Positions 1,756-6,106 are shown, numbered from the stretch's first letter. The stretch: 31,815 bases of DNA from a virus (IMGVR_UViG_2603880148_000002:1-31815), one strand, 5' to 3'. Numbers and translations: made by a program. The notes: a model not told the origin generated them from the letters alone.

Positions 1756-2015
1756 TTAGTTTCCTTGTTTATGCCTTGCTGGTGATGTTCTGAAAAGTAT
1801 AAATGATATTTTTGATTGTAAACCATAGAGCAGAATTATTTTTCTGATGTTGTTTATTGTTTATTTAAATGCAGGGTGGTTTATATCTCGTCTTGTAGTT
1901 TATCCATGCATATCTGCTTGATGATGAGGTTTTTAATTAAGGTATGGTTTTGTGTTTTTTCTGTATTACATGTCAGGTATTTTAAAGAATCATTTTTCAG
2001 ATGGTGGAAAGAACC

Positions 2016-3872
2016 ATGGCATTTAAACACTATGATGTTGTCAGGGCGGCGTCGCCGTCAGATCTTGCGGAAAAGCTGACACATAAACTGAAAGAGGGCT
2101 GGCAGCCGTTTGGTAGTCCGGTGGCCATAACCCCTTATACCCTGATGCAGGCGATTGCAGCAGAAGGTGATGTGGTCGTCAGTGGTGCAACTGAGCCGGA
2201 GTGGTACTACGTCATCGTACTGGCCGGGCAATCCAATGCCATGGCTTACGGTGAAGGGCTTCCGCTTCCGGATTCTTACGATGCGCCCCACCCACGCATT
2301 AAGCAACTGGCCCGTCGCAACACAGTGACTCCCGGTGGTAAAGCATGCGCATTTAACGACATCATTCCGGCAGACCACTGCCTGCATGATGTTCAGGATA
2401 TGAGCGCACTGAATCATCCGAAGGCAGACCTGAGCAAAGGGCAGTACGGCTGTGTCGGCCAGGGCTTACATATTGCCAAAAAACTGCTTCCGTATATCCC
2501 GAATAACGCGGGGATCCTGCTGGTACCATGCTGTCGTGGTGGTTCGGCATTCACCCAGGGCGCGGAGGGGACATTCAGTGCGGACACGGGGGCCAGCCAG
2601 GATTCGGCACGCTGGGGTGTGGGTAAACCGTTATATCAGGACCTGATCGCACGCACCAAAGCGGCATTACAGAAGAACCCGAAAAATGTGTTGCTGGCGG
2701 TGTGCTGGATGCAGGGCGAATTTGACATGAGCGCTGCCACCTACGCACAGCAACCGGACCTGTTCACGGCCATGCTGAAGCAGTTCCGTACTGACCTTTC
2801 CGGATTTAACGCGCAGTGCCATGGCGGCAGTGCTGCAGTTGTACCGTGGATTTGTGGCGACACGACGTATTACTGGAAAAACACATACGGCACACAGTAT
2901 GACTCCGTCTACGGCGCGTACAAAAACAGGGAGAGCGACAACGTTTTCTTTGTGCCGTTCATGACCGACGGTAACGGCAACAACACGCCCACCAACTTAC
3001 CGGCAGAAGACCCGGATATTGCTGATGCAGGTTATTACGGCGCGCAATCCCGTAGTAATGGTAATTGGGTATCGTCAAATCGTCCGACACATTTCAGTTC
3101 ATGGGCGCGCAGGGGCATTATTTCGGATCGCCTGGCAACCGCTATTCTGAACGCAGTTGGTCGAACCAGCGCCTTCATCAGCGGTACCGCACCGGAGATT
3201 AAACCCTCGCCCGGCGGCGACACGCCATCGGGGCCGTCTGATGGTGACACATCCGTTCGTACAGTCTCCCTGCTGCCGACAGCCGGAGAGGCTGCTGCGC
3301 AGGGCTGGACCATCACCGGCGGCAGTGTTGCGCTGGAAGATGGTGTGTTTAAGGTTACCAAGCAGAGCAATAAAACCTGGTCCCTGATGCATCCGGTGGA
3401 TGACGCGGTCTCCCTGCTGACACGGGGTGGCAGACTGAGCTGTAAGTTTCGACTGTCAGGCGCACTGACCAACAACCAGTTCGGTCTGGGAATTTATCTG
3501 TATACCGATGTAGCGTTACCTGACGTCGTGGCGATGACCGGGACTGGTAACCCGTTCCTGATGTCGTTCTTCACCCAGACCACAGACGGCAAACTGAATC
3601 TGATGCATCACAAGAAAGCCGGAAACACAAAGTTGGGCGAGTTCGGGAATTACAGTAACGACTGGCAGACGCTGGAGCTGGTGTTCACCGCCGGCAGTGC
3701 CACGGTTACTCCGAAACTGAATGGAGTGGCTGGCCCGGCATTCCAGGTCATAAAAGACAGTCTGACACTGGGGCTGAATGCGCTGACGCTGACGGATATT
3801 ACCAAAAATGCAGCGTATGGCGTTGAGATAGAAAGTCTGGTGCTGGAGATAAATGCACCGGCATCATCATAA
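2016..3872 (+). CDS. nanS: prophage sialate O-acetylesterase (NanS-p-like) with C-terminal extension
   Basis: N-terminus MAFKHYDVVRAASPSDLAEKLTHKLKEGWQPFGSPVAI... followed by VIVLAGQSNAMAYGEG (SGNH/SASA-type esterase block) as in NanS-p proteins found next to lysis genes in EHEC lambdoid phages. Start taken at the second ATG (2016), which has a GGTGGA RBS; the track ORF starts at 2001. Confidence 0.8.
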   Translation: MAFKHYDVVRAASPSDLAEKLTHKLKEGWQPFGSPVAITPYTLMQAIAAEGDVVVSGATEPEWYYVIVLAGQSNAMAYGEGLPLPDSYDAPHPRIKQLARRNTVTPGGKACAFNDIIPADHCLHDVQDMSALNHPKADLSKGQYGCVGQGLHIAKKLLPYIPNNAGILLVPCCRGGSAFTQGAEGTFSADTGASQDSARWGVGKPLYQDLIARTKAALQKNPKNVLLAVCWMQGEFDMSAATYAQQPDLFTAMLKQFRTDLSGFNAQCHGGSAAVVPWICGDTTYYWKNTYGTQYDSVYGAYKNRESDNVFFVPFMTDGNGNNTPTNLPAEDPDIADAGYYGAQSRSNGNWVSSNRPTHFSSWARRGIISDRLATAILNAVGRTSAFISGTAPEIKPSPGGDTPSGPSDGDTSVRTVSLLPTAGEAAAQGWTITGGSVALEDGVFKVTKQSNKTWSLMHPVDDAVSLLTRGGRLSCKFRLSGALTNNQFGLGIYLYTDVALPDVVAMTGTGNPFLMSFFTQTTDGKLNLMHHKKAGNTKLGEFGNYSNDWQTLELVFTAGSATVTPKLNGVAGPAFQVIKDSLTLGLNALTLTDITKNAAYGVEIESLVLEINAPASS

Positions 3873-3956
3873 AAAGTGAGCCAGTCAAATGGAAGGTATC
3901 GTTAAACTCACCGGTAGTGTCAGTGGGTCGTCTGAGATGCCTGCATGAGTTATCAG

Positions 3957-3988
3957 AGCCATCAGTACTTAACTGGTGGCTTTTTTTA
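3957..3988 (+). terminator. intrinsic terminator-like hairpin upstream of the holin gene
   Basis: Stem AGCCATCAG/CTGGTGGCT (9 bp, one G-U) with 7-nt loop followed by TTTTTTT. Confidence 0.5.
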
Positions 3989-4022
3989 TTGTTGTCAGCT
4001 TCCGGATAACGGGAGACGGGGT

Positions 4023-4238
4023 ATGTACCAGATGGAAAAAATCACAACAGGTGTGTCATACACCACGTCAGCGGTGGGAACGGGCTACTGGTTCCTGCAG
4101 TTGCTGGACAGGGTTTCCCCGTCTCAGTGGGCGGCAATAGGCGTGCTGGGGAGTCTGCTGTTTGGGCTGCTGACATATCTGACTAACCTGTATTTCAAAA
4201 TCAGAGAGGACCGTCGTAAGGCTGCACGGGGAGAGTAA
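4023..4238 (+). CDS. S: class II holin (phage 21 S-like pinholin), 71 aa, with dual-start motif
   Basis: [71 protein letters not shown] closely resembles the phage 21 S pinholin as I recall it. Met1 and Met4 give the usual two starts; RBS GGGAGA upstream of 4023. The track ORF extends further upstream, to 3945. Confidence 0.85.
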
Positions 4239-4242
4239 TTCA

Positions 4243-4587
4243 ATGACTCAAAACTATGAACTGATTGTGAAAGGGATCCGCAATTTTGAGAATAAAGTTA
4301 CGATAACTTTAGCGTTACGGGACAAAAAACGCTTTGACGGTGAAATTTTTGACCTGGACATCTCGCTGGACCGTGTTGAAGGTGCCGCGCTGGAGTTTTA
4401 TGAGGCAGCAGCCAGAAGGAGCATCAGACAGGTCTTCCTGGATGTTGCTGCCGGGTTATGTGAAGGGGATGAGCAGTCGCCGGAAAAGCGCCCCGTAATT
4501 TTAGAGGCGCAGGATGTGTTGATAACCTACAGAGGAAAACTACCGGGAATAATTACGGGTTCTCTGAAGAGTCCGCCGAAATGGTAA
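4243..4587 (+). CDS. hypothetical protein, 114 aa, inserted between holin and endolysin
   Basis: Track ORF starting 5 nt after the holin stop with a GGAGAG-like RBS. No recognisable motif. Confidence 0.4.
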   Translation: MTQNYELIVKGIRNFENKVTITLALRDKKRFDGEIFDLDISLDRVEGAALEFYEAAARRSIRQVFLDVAAGLCEGDEQSPEKRPVILEAQDVLITYRGKLPGIITGSLKSPPKW

Positions 4588-4825
4588 TTTTACCAGCATA
4601 TTTTTCATCCAGTAATACAGCAAGCCGCCTGAAAGAGTCTTGTTGTTCCTGAGACCATTTGGGATTGCATGATTCAAACTGGATTGATGCCAGCGTTGAT
4701 TGCATCTGTTCCCTTGGAATTGAGAATGCCAGATATGAGAAGGCGACGGTAAGGGTATTCACGTCTTCCCGAAGCCTGGAAATGCTGTCGAGCAACTCCT
4801 GTAGAGAAATGGTGTTATTGTCCAT
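4553..4825 (-). CDS. hypothetical protein, 90 aa, convergent with and overlapping the 3' end of the 114-aa ORF
   Basis: Track ORF; AGGA RBS about 9 nt upstream of the ATG on the - strand. No recognisable motif. Confidence 0.3.
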   Translation of the reverse strand: MDNNTISLQELLDSISRLREDVNTLTVAFSYLAFSIPREQMQSTLASIQFESCNPKWSQEQQDSFRRLAVLLDEKYAGKITISADSSENP

Positions 4826-4930
4826 AAATAATCCTCATGATTGTATTGACCTGTTAGCAGCCTGAGGCAACAGGCTGGAACTGATAAACATATCCAGGGC
4901 TCAGAAACCGATAAATCCTGATAAATATCC

Positions 4931-5464
4931 ATGAACGCAAAAATCAGATACGGCCTGTCGGCTGCCGTTCTGGCGCTGATTGCCGCTGGTGCGCCTGCGC
5001 CTGACATTCTCGACCAGTTTCTGGATGAAAAGGAAGGTAACCACACCACGGCATACCGTGATGGCGCGGGTATCTGGACCATCTGCCGCGGTGCCATCCT
5101 GGTGGATGGCAAACCTGTCGTTCCGGGCATGAAGTTGTCGAAGGAAAAATGCGACCGGGTTAACGCCATTGAGCGTGATAAGGCGCTGGCATGGGTGGAG
5201 AAAAACATCAAAGTGCCATTGAGCGAACCCCAGAAAGCGGGGATCGCGTCATTCTGTCCGTACAACATTGGTCCCGGTAAGTGTTTCCCGTCGACGTTTT
5301 ATAAACGAATTAATGCAGGTGATCGCAGGGGAGCGTGTGAGGCGATTCGCTGGTGGATTAAGGACGGTGGCAGAGACTGCCGTATTCGTTCAAACAACTG
5401 CTACGGTCAGGTATCCCGTCGTGACCAGGAGAGCGCGCTGGCGTGCTGGGGTATCGACAGATAA
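4931..5464 (+). CDS. R: SAR endolysin (phage lysozyme, T4 lysozyme-like fold)
   Basis: N-terminal Gly/Ala-rich hydrophobic stretch GLSAAVLALIAAGAPA typical of a signal-anchor-release domain, then the catalytic block EGNHTTAYRDGAGIWTICRG (E-8aa-D-5aa-T spacing as in phage 21 R-type lysozymes). Pairs functionally with the pinholin. Confidence 0.9.
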   Translation: MNAKIRYGLSAAVLALIAAGAPAPDILDQFLDEKEGNHTTAYRDGAGIWTICRGAILVDGKPVVPGMKLSKEKCDRVNAIERDKALAWVEKNIKVPLSEPQKAGIASFCPYNIGPGKCFPSTFYKRINAGDRRGACEAIRWWIKDGGRDCRIRSNNCYGQVSRRDQESALACWGIDR

Positions 5465-5553
5465 GCAGAATATTTTGCTGAAAAATGCGGTTTGCTTACA
5501 CGGACGGATAACACGAAATCCTGCGAACTGACAAAAACTAAGTGAATAAAAGT

Positions 5554-5593
5554 AAAAACCCCGTTTGTTGGCAGCAAGCGGGGTTTTGTTTTT
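5554..5593 (+). terminator. strong intrinsic terminator-like hairpin after the endolysin gene
   Basis: 9-bp stem CCCCGTTTG/CAAGCGGGG with 7-nt loop (5559-5583), then TTTTGTTTTT. Confidence 0.55.
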
Positions 5594-5658
5594 ATGGCAG
5601 TAAGCTATGGGAGGCTGCCTTGATTGATTTTAGCAAACTGATTAGGGAGTTGCGACTC

Positions 5659-5754
5659 ATGATTAGTCAATTACCAAACTGGAAATTTTTGCTGGTCTGG
5701 AGCATCCCTTTTTTATGGGTAGTATCCCAGTTAATTGTGGCAATTAAGGGGTAG
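5659..5754 (+). CDS. small hydrophobic peptide, 31 aa (MISQLPNWKFLLVWSIPFLWVVSQLIVAIKG)
   Basis: Internal ATG of track ORF 5542..5754 preceded by a GGGAG RBS; predicted single transmembrane helix. Confidence 0.25.
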   Translation: MISQLPNWKFLLVWSIPFLWVVSQLIVAIKG

Positions 5755-5756
5755 CT

Positions 5757-5888
5757 ATGTCAGACAAACTCATAACGCCGGCAAAGGTCCTGTGTGTGAT
5801 TGTCGGTATTTCATTTTCACTAATGCTGGTTGCTCTTTTTCTGTCCCTCGCCTGGGTGATGTTGTCTTCGTCGGGGCTGCTGGGGTGA
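5757..5888 (+). CDS. small hydrophobic peptide, 43 aa (MSDKLITPAKVLCVIVGISFSLMLVALFLSLAWVMLSSSGLLG)
   Basis: Read by hand in the frame the track omits (under 60 aa); ATG 2 nt after the previous stop. Confidence 0.3.
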   Translation: MSDKLITPAKVLCVIVGISFSLMLVALFLSLAWVMLSSSGLLG

Positions 5889-6007
5889 CAGTGACTGATG
5901 ACATCAGCAGAGCGCTGGCTTTTGCTATTAAGTGGGTGGCTGTTGGTATTGCTGTGTCTCCGATGCTGTATGGGCTGGCAAAACTGGTCATTGCGCTGAA
6001 ATCGTGA
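5885..6007 (+). CDS. small hydrophobic peptide, about 40 aa (VTVTDDISRALAFAIKWVAVGIAVSPMLYGLAKLVIALKS), GTG start assumed
   Basis: C-terminal part of track ORF 5735..6007; GTG overlaps the stop of the previous peptide. Paralogous to the next peptide (RALAFAIKWVAVGIAV versus [16 protein letters not shown]). Confidence 0.3.
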   Translation: MTVTDDISRALAFAIKWVAVGIAVSPMLYGLAKLVIALKS

Positions 6008-6018
6008 ACTTTAAAAAG

Positions 6019-6105
6019 ATGAGTGCTGAACTTATTCGGGCAATGGCATTTGCCATTCGTATTGTGGCCATTGCTGTTCTGGTCTGGGCAATCCGTTGGT
6101 GGTGA
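6019..6105 (+). CDS. small hydrophobic peptide, 28 aa ([28 protein letters not shown])
   Basis: Read by hand; stop lies 1 nt before the Rz ATG. Confidence 0.3.
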
Positions 6106-6106
6106 T

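Follow-up and report, generated by a model that had tools for sequence, protein, structure and literature searches.

We have analysed the 692 bp between the holin gene (S) and the endolysin gene (R) of a viral DNA sequence of 31,815 nucleotides (IMGVR_UViG_2603880148_000002; the whole sequence is called the window below). This stretch, at positions 4239–4930, contains a forward gene of the ydfR family, open reading frame 114 (ORF114), and a reverse gene, ORF90, which converge and overlap at their 3' ends. We consider it quite probable that the two are a forward/reverse moron pair in the variable slot between the S21-type holin and the R21-type signal-arrest-release (SAR) endolysin of a lambdoid Escherichia coli prophage. 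The ydfR–ORF90 pair is a member of an already described forward/reverse moron architecture, but lies among the lysis genes rather than in the tail module. It is already known and annotated, and is an ordinary pair, not a new lysis regulator.

The ORF coordinates, the 35-nt overlap and the 7-bp inverted repeat described in an earlier note on this DNA (the original prediction) are all present. The features are as follows, with the two Shine-Dalgarno sites read from the sequence.

4023–4238, plus strand: S21-type class II holin (pinholin), 71 amino acids, left flank of the slot
4228–4235, plus strand: Shine-Dalgarno of ydfR, GGGGAGAG, within the last holin codons
4243–4587, plus strand: ydfR-family gene (DUF1327), ORF114, 114 amino acids, co-oriented with the late/lysis operon
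4553–4587, both strands: convergent overlap of the two 3' ends, 35 nt
4553–4825, minus strand: ORF90, reverse-oriented moron gene, PHROG 2411 by profile match, 90 amino acids
4832–4836, minus strand: Shine-Dalgarno GAGGA of ORF90, 6 nt ahead of the ATG
4858–4864 and 4871–4877, minus strand: arms of the perfect inverted repeat CAGCCTG-N6-CAGGCTG, between the ORF90 start and the endolysin
4871–4927, minus strand: promoter-like region of ORF90, homologous to the upstream region of HK97/HK022/ES18-type reverse morons
4910–4915 and 4887–4892, minus strand: putative -35 TTTATC and -10 TATGTT, 17-nt spacer
4931–5464, plus strand: R21-type SAR endolysin, 177 amino acids, right flank of the slot

The flanking genes are those that the original prediction had named, an S21-type pinholin and a SAR-type lysozyme. 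The holin matches PF04971 (E-value 9e-33, 112 bits) and the holin families phrog_9876/phrog_20, and it is WP_000284510.1, 'class II holin family protein', in RefSeq. It is nested in a longer ORF (3945–4238) and has a dual start (MYQM, starts M1/M4). The endolysin matches PF00959 (5.5e-24) and phrog_7, and its translation shows an N-terminal Ala/Gly-rich segment and E-x8-D-x5-T. In the holin and endolysin families, the dual-start holin, the SAR N-terminus and the E-D-T triad, the window is like the S-R-Rz cassettes of the phage 21/DLP12 type. It differs from the minimal cassette of this type by two extra genes between S and R, which together with their spacers fill the 692 bp, and neither of which is known to be required for lysis. 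In phage 21 and DLP12, S and R presumably abut. The premise that the pinholin and endolysin genes are adjacent in related cassettes is supported by the phage records 2851, 1W, Ayreon and phi467, where the holin and endolysin features are listed together under the holin-gene match; this suggests that S and R abut in some phages.

Both genes in the slot can be assigned to families, contrary to the earlier statement that neither product has a recognisable motif. ORF114 matches PF07041 (DUF1327/YdfR) with 143.8 bits (gathering score 25, E-value 2e-42, residues 1–111 on profile positions 1–91 of 93) and phrog_406 (1e-67), and is WP_000193278.1, 'YdfR family protein', in RefSeq. ORF90 matches phrog_2411 over its full length (E-value 1.1e-58, residues 1–90 on profile positions 1–90 of 90) and is the hypothetical protein WP_000369850.1. 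Of the homology and structure searches that had been proposed, it was the profile searches (Pfam, PHROG) that found the families, while the PDB and fold searches returned nothing specific. An NCBIfam search of both proteins gave a single sub-threshold match of 15 residues, and PADLOC matched neither of them. A literature search on DUF1327 function, 'ybl58', 'reverse moron', HK022 srb and the leader sequence described below found nothing.

The stretch had been taken for an unusual insertion that splits the lysis genes. This view has to be given up, since holin–ydfR–lysozyme is the standard Qin-type arrangement. Actually, ydfR-like DNA is found in 4411 of the 5426 complete E. coli genomes (81%), and the entire ydfR–ORF90–R arrangement in 1128 of them, including BL21 derivatives and O55:H7. 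ORF90 DNA was counted in 1053 genomes (about 20%), so that nearly all ORF90 copies lie in this arrangement. An identical layout, with the 35-nt overlap and about 86–88% DNA identity, is present in the Qin-like prophage of O55:H7 CB9615 and in the Rac remnant of a BL21(DE3) derivative, and the prophages of E. coli C11 and NCTC86 match the window at 99.9–100% identity over the tested segments. Among the phage records carrying this holin type, only 3 of 405 contain ORF90.

The content of the slot varies between prophages, and the comparison with relatives lacking ORF90, which the original prediction had suggested, proves informative. In the Qin prophage of K-12 (essQ-ydfR-rrrQ-rzpQ; YdfR P76160), a DUF1327 gene lies between an S21-type holin and a lysozyme as in the window, but the K-12 protein has 103 instead of 114 amino acids and diverges past about residue 68; its stop overlaps the start of R (rrrQ), and no reverse ORF follows. 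EC32 has a 116-aa ydfR 63 bp from R and no reverse gene. ORF90 thus lies between genes that are neighbours in K-12 Qin and EC32, as expected for a moron. The slot holds a 268-aa YdfR and an unrelated reverse 104-aa ORF in Stx2 phage 86, a ydfR pseudogene and a different unrelated reverse 86-aa ORF in K56-43, and in STEC17-190 a 185-aa protein with the C-terminal domain of the long YdfR of phage 86. In EC32, about 65 bp of the spacer between ydfR and R (L002:3694–3756, against window 4865–4930) are homologous to the promoter region of ORF90, with the -10-like hexamer mutated from AACATA to AACCTG (plus strand). This remnant suggests that many cassettes without ORF90 may be deletion derivatives.

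The ydfR gene lies directly downstream of the S21-type holin, as in Qin. The original prediction placed a ribosome-binding site 5 nt after the holin stop, whereas it is the ATG that begins there, after a 4-nt spacer (TTCA); the Shine-Dalgarno sequence is the one inside the last holin codons. Its view that ORF114 is positioned for co-expression with the lysis genes is upheld. Lacking its own promoter and following the holin stop at a distance of 4 nt, ydfR would be co-transcribed with the lysis genes on the Q-dependent late transcript. The dN/dS (ratio of non-synonymous to synonymous substitution rates) of ydfR is 0.20–0.47. An AlphaFold2 model shows a beta-beta-beta-helix N-domain (residues 4–71) and a low-confidence C-terminus, and a sequence search of the PDB with YdfR gave no hit.

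The K-12 YdfR protein has been reported in 2026 to bind the N-terminal, catalytic half of RNase E (residues 1–597; two-hybrid, pull-down), through YdfR residues 1–72, and to co-purify with RNA (PMC13232886). Since the N-terminal 68 residues of the window YdfR are 82% identical to those of K-12, the most likely role of the protein, by homology, would be in host RNA decay late in infection, not in lysis itself. Sampled YdfR alleles other than that of K-12 have residues 1–112 in common and diverge directly after ...SLKTPP, ending in KW* (with ORF90), in ESQP* or in long coiled-coil extensions; the window protein ends in ...ITGSLKSPPKW. In the long forms (176, 183 and 268 aa; L004:1844–2650, L007:1270–1827, P0107/P0111), DUF1327 is fused to a coiled coil (..LE.R...L.KKLS..). 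This coiled coil resembles the separate coiled-coil forward partners of 53–95 aa that accompany tail-module reverse morons in 43 of the 111 listed IMG/VR loci.

For ORF90, 62 homologues were collected, mostly from Escherichia/Shigella and also from Citrobacter. Most of them retain the 90-aa length at 71–99% identity, and the substitutions are conservative. The dN/dS is 0.20–0.40 in its own frame, while three of the other five frames give 0.74–3.0 and contain stops; the remaining two are not independent controls, because this frame pair shares the third codon positions of ORF90. Based on these data, we judge both ORF114 and ORF90 to be intact, conserved and real genes. ORF90 is predicted by AlphaFold2 (predicted local distance difference test score 72) to be a small cytoplasmic three-helix protein, with helices at residues 8–35, 38–52 and 59–77 and a low-confidence tail at 80–90. 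Its profile found nothing significant in the PDB (best E-value 1.5), and fold searches gave nothing specific. The family is narrow: an exhaustive profile search recovered only 20 cluster representatives, all small proteins except one, a repetitive protein of 971 aa that we regard as a chance hit, and a scan of genome contigs for relatives yielded only 2 loci.

Several members of the family lie outside lysis cassettes. In E. coli GF43, a 72%-identical homologue stands alone between insertion sequence remnants and iha (L009:1446–1718) with no lysis genes nearby; TTTATC-17-TATGTT is kept upstream of this copy, and the inverted repeat is absent. The distant members P0077 and P0072 are chromosomal (L018:3001–3279, L019, L017) and have no conserved leader. 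One of them, in an enterobacterium, has dinI and bssS as its two neighbours and is only a few kb away from rne.

The more distant relatives of ORF90 are antisense to phage late genes, between the tail genes M and L or near terminase genes, or, as in the chromosomal cases above, occur alone. The homologues in Citrobacter and in two tail-module contexts converge on a small forward gene with an overlap of 7–15 nt, and a fourth homologue lies opposite a terminase-proximal block, with no partner visible at the contig end. Their upstream regions have a strongly conserved element of about 115 nt in common. A leader pattern derived from it has hits in at least 120 IMG/VR contigs, and the leader also occurs in 27 GenBank phage records. 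Its layout is AATATCAGGGTGTT..CCCTGGTTAAGGT..TCAGCCCGTCAGTGGTGGGACACTGGCGC..GAGGGATGGCTGATTACCTCTG..SD..ATG, where SD is the Shine-Dalgarno sequence. Among the matches listed, it precedes at least 22 unrelated cargo families of 65–211 aa, and in those IMG/VR contigs whose flanking genes could be recognised, the cassette runs antisense to tail genes (L/M, I/J or H). The leader copies are as follows.

Window 4826–4930: decayed copy upstream of ORF90
L025–L144: further copies
L145:1501–1640: copy of HK97
L146:1501–1640: copy of HK022
L147:1501–1635: copy of ES18

In three of these phages, the gene behind the leader is already annotated as belonging to this class: HK97 gp23 ('reverse moron product'), HK022 gp23 ('srb', moron) and ES18 gp25 ('possible moron'). 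Their convergent forward partners are HK97 gp22 (annotated 'moron product'), HK022 gp22 and ES18 gp24 (both likewise annotated as morons). The pairs are like that of the window in that a small forward gene converges with, and usually overlaps, a small reverse gene, in their insertion between late genes that are adjacent in relatives, and in the conserved promoter and leader upstream of the reverse gene, which correspond to the promoter-like part of ORF90. They differ in lying in the tail module (I/J or M/L junctions) and not in the lysis cassette, in reverse cargo proteins with no detectable similarity to ORF90, and in having a full three-helix leader and a flanking terminator, whereas the window retains no more than the promoter-like region together with the outer stem, and a terminator was not found there. 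ORF90 shows the arrangement of the reverse-moron cassette, opposite to the late genes and convergent with a small forward gene.

The forward partner of ES18, gp24, belongs to DUF1327 (1.2e-9 with the YdfR hidden Markov model), and a YdfR-like forward partner of 76 aa occurs in 8 of the 111 listed IMG/VR loci. We had considered whether the forward partner is always YdfR-like, and this is rejected, as only ES18 and these 8 loci have one. Likewise, the idea that all reverse-moron cargos and ORF90 form one hypervariable superfamily is rejected, with hhalign probabilities of no more than 1.4%. In one IMG/VR phage group (L031:5101–7872), the cassette has a glycosyltransferase-like gene on either side, with HNH and terminase genes downstream, and overlaps a 111-aa forward gene by 47 nt.

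The original prediction also drew attention to the convergent overlap inside the lysis cassette. Such an overlap is not peculiar to lysis cassettes, as forward/reverse pairs in tail clusters overlap too, by 123 nt in HK97, 81 nt in HK022 and 4–92 nt in 50 of the 111 listed IMG/VR loci. In the window, the overlap encodes ORF90 residues 80–90, which are poorly conserved, and the last 11 codons of ydfR. The low-confidence tail of ORF90 is exactly the overlap-encoded part, so the overlap looks like ORF90 reading into the 3' end of ydfR and not like a designed feature. Alleles of ydfR that are not followed by ORF90 have the tail ITGSLKxPP as well. The Citrobacter homologue of ORF90 converges on an unrelated 238-aa gene that has only the last ~12 codons in common with ydfR (ITGSL..P.K.*); beyond these codons, neither this partner nor the 71-aa partner at L013 resembles YdfR. 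Because only these ~12 codons are shared by the Citrobacter partner, the junction appears to have moved together with the cassette, and the 35-nt junction of the window would travel in the same manner.

The RNA structure of the leader is supported by covariation. In full leaders, both-sided changes were found in 5 of 8 and 4 of 6 pairs of the two inner helices, 95% of the cells are paired, and none of 500 shuffles reaches the observed values. When the 3' partners were slid by 1–3 columns as a control, the scores were far lower. The outer stem UCAGCC/GGCUGA is invariant, partly because the search pattern fixed its 5' arm. It crosses a hairpin in which the Shine-Dalgarno-like AGAGG pairs with CCUCU. 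Rfam gave no match for the full leaders of six loci (E-value up to 0.1) or for window 4826–4930 (E-value up to 5).

Upstream of ORF90, the conserved element TATCAGG..CCCTGG..TCAGCC was detected by nhmmer and in alignments. With a profile built from 78 distinct viral leaders, exactly one site is found in the 31.8 kb of the window, at 4927–4871 on the minus strand (E=0.0032). The TTTATC-17-TATGTT hexamers are kept in all E. coli copies, including the iha-linked one, and the GAGGA Shine-Dalgarno is kept in the O55:H7, BL21 and E. ruysiae copies. In the alignments, the inverted repeat of the window falls on the CAGCC/GGCUG outer stem of the conserved leader. About 50 nt of the leader are missing: the inner hairpin with the GUGGGA loop and the AGAGG/CCUCU hairpin are gone, and only the outer stem is left. 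The full leader is kept upstream of the ORF90 homologues in Citrobacter, L013 and L020.

Taken alone, the inverted repeat is within chance expectation, and it gains meaning only through the comparison with the conserved leader. Markov simulations predict 0.35 perfect repeats with arms of 7 bp or more and loops of 3–10 nt per 692 bp, the window itself averages 0.70 over the same length, and about 5% of simulated 105-bp spacers hold at least one. In other copies, the stem has 8 of 9 pairs (O55:H7), a 5-bp core (BL21) or is missing (the iha-linked copy). A terminator function is rejected, as a T-run follows on neither strand. The repeat would rather be a remnant of the outer stem of the leader. 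It is known that 5' hairpins can protect mRNAs from RNase E; given the putative -35 and -10, the ORF90 mRNA would carry the stem close to its 5' end, where the stem might have such a role. A second perfect inverted repeat, at window 4293–4313 inside ydfR (the AAAGTTAC-GA-TAACTTT region), is probably due to chance.

Juhala and co-workers, working in 2000 on HK97 and HK022, reportedly defined morons as genes lying between genes that are adjacent in relatives, with their own sigma-70-type promoter and a factor-independent terminator, and expressed from the repressed prophage. ORF90 would be an autonomous moron of this type, with a promoter-like element, a short structured leader derived from the HK97/HK022/ES18 cassette and a good Shine-Dalgarno; among the possibilities raised by the original prediction, that of an unrelated moron is the one favoured by the evidence for this gene. 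Since its direction is opposite to that of the late operon, ORF90 is most likely expressed in the resident prophage whether or not the lytic cycle is induced, and would benefit the lysogen. The moron HK97 gp15, which Cumby and co-workers reportedly found in 2012 to act in superinfection exclusion as a membrane protein expressed from the prophage, is like ORF90 a small accessory gene among lambdoid late genes and illustrates possible moron roles; the reported membrane localisation of gp15 differs from the three soluble-looking helices in the AlphaFold2 model of ORF90.

Some observations do weigh against this interpretation. A factor-independent terminator is lacking after ORF90: none was found on the minus strand from 4553 to the holin, where there is only a weak 5-bp stem at 4064–4050, and the antisense transcript may thus extend into ydfR and S. 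A generic sigma-70 scan did not call the ORF90 promoter, which stayed below the threshold, and the nhmmer E-value of the leader hit is modest (0.003). With two of the three conserved helices gone, the leader of the window may not behave like a full leader. The promoter, the transcription start and the expression of ORF90 in lysogeny are putative, deduced from the DNA. As for YdfR, few transcripts were altered by its overproduction (PMC13232886).

It might be argued that the two genes are not independent morons but a functional pair, in which ORF90 made in the lysogen neutralises leaky YdfR, or both act jointly as toxin and antidote or as effector and modulator. This would explain their joint travel: essentially all E. 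coli copies of ORF90 adjoin ydfR (1053 against 1128 genomes), the KW* allele of ydfR goes with ORF90, and YdfR-like forward genes recur with a reverse moron in ES18 and the 8 listed IMG/VR loci. Nevertheless, about three quarters of ydfR genes have no ORF90, the reverse cargo beside the YdfR-like genes of ES18 and IMG/VR is unrelated to ORF90, and ORF90 homologues are found with unrelated forward genes of 238, 71 and 60 aa, or alone beside iha and between dinI and bssS. The last ~12 ydfR codons kept at the Citrobacter homologue might be seen as a trace of such a pair, but they are more simply explained by the ORF90 coding sequence extending into ydfR, and PADLOC gave no match. We regard a functional pair as unlikely.

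A little less likely still is the idea of the original prediction, that antisense or convergent transcription from the ORF90 promoter modulates the lysis genes. The transcript would cover the 3' end of ydfR and possibly S, with polymerases starting 16–55 nt upstream of the R start codon, and collision with late transcription would damp leaky holin and endolysin expression in lysogens or tune the lysis time. The -35-like element is indeed 16 nt from the ATG of R, no terminator was detected on the minus strand from ORF90 to the holin, and ORF90 is far commoner in resident prophages (about 1/4 of the ydfR-carrying E. coli genomes) than in phage records (3 of 405). But the same cassette is found in tail clusters and beside terminase genes, and its location is therefore not tied to lysis; many functional cassettes have no ORF90; and ORF90 is under purifying selection at the protein level, which indicates that the protein is the selected product. 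No support for a role in lysis timing emerged from this sequence analysis. It is very improbable that either ORF, or both, should be a remnant without function, such as a pseudogene fragment or a chance ORF. Frameshifted and truncated variants of ORF90 are known (P0061 and several fragments of 50–61 aa), in other strains ydfR is sometimes annotated as a pseudogene, and the cassette often lies in decaying cryptic prophages. The copies in the window, however, are intact and conserved and are identical to widespread alleles, the 90-aa length is kept in most ORF90 homologues down to 71% identity, the in-frame dN/dS is 0.2–0.4, and both ORFs have full-length profile matches. The pseudogene fragments that the original prediction had named as a possible outcome were hence not found.

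With the moron pair as the preferred reading, the main value of the analysis is that a false lead is avoided: as accessory arrangements in the lysis cassettes of E. coli prophages go, the apparent insertion is one of the commonest. No role has been established for either gene, despite their presence in 81% (ydfR) and about 20% (ORF90) of complete E. coli genomes, laboratory B strains included. The only experimental lead for YdfR, its binding to RNase E, points to a protein, expressed alongside the lysis genes, by which the phage could act on host RNA decay.

The most interesting by-product is the conserved reverse-moron leader. We put forward, as a rather speculative proposal, that the ~115-nt element upstream of reverse morons is an undescribed cis-regulatory unit, consisting of a promoter and a structured 5' leader, for lysogen-specific or conditional expression of hypervariable small cargo antisense in the late operons of enterobacterial temperate phages. 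In such a unit, the outer stem UCAGCC/GGCUGA may compete with the AGAGG/CCUCU hairpin, and ORF90 would be a cargo gene that has come to lie in the lysis cassette, its leader decayed. Given that reverse morons recur beside YdfR-like (RNase E-binding) forward genes, such a pair might also act on RNA stability. The covarying and widespread promoter and leader would be a tractable system for studying how prophage cargo is expressed against the direction of the late operon.

Overall, the window covers the late genes of a lambdoid prophage of E. coli, in which the lysis cassette is followed by terminase, head and lambda-like tail genes. Upstream of the cassette lie the following genes.

2001–3872: tRNA-Arg, iraM and SASA esterase, 5' of the lysis cassette

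In addition, the spacer between R and Rz (window 5465–6106) is a second variable slot. It contains a strong terminator-like hairpin at 5555–5587 and three small hydrophobic ORFs, whose annotation in NCTC86 is hypothetical. The C11 prophage, otherwise nearly identical to the window, has a different and shorter spacer here, and Stx phages have ant at this place.

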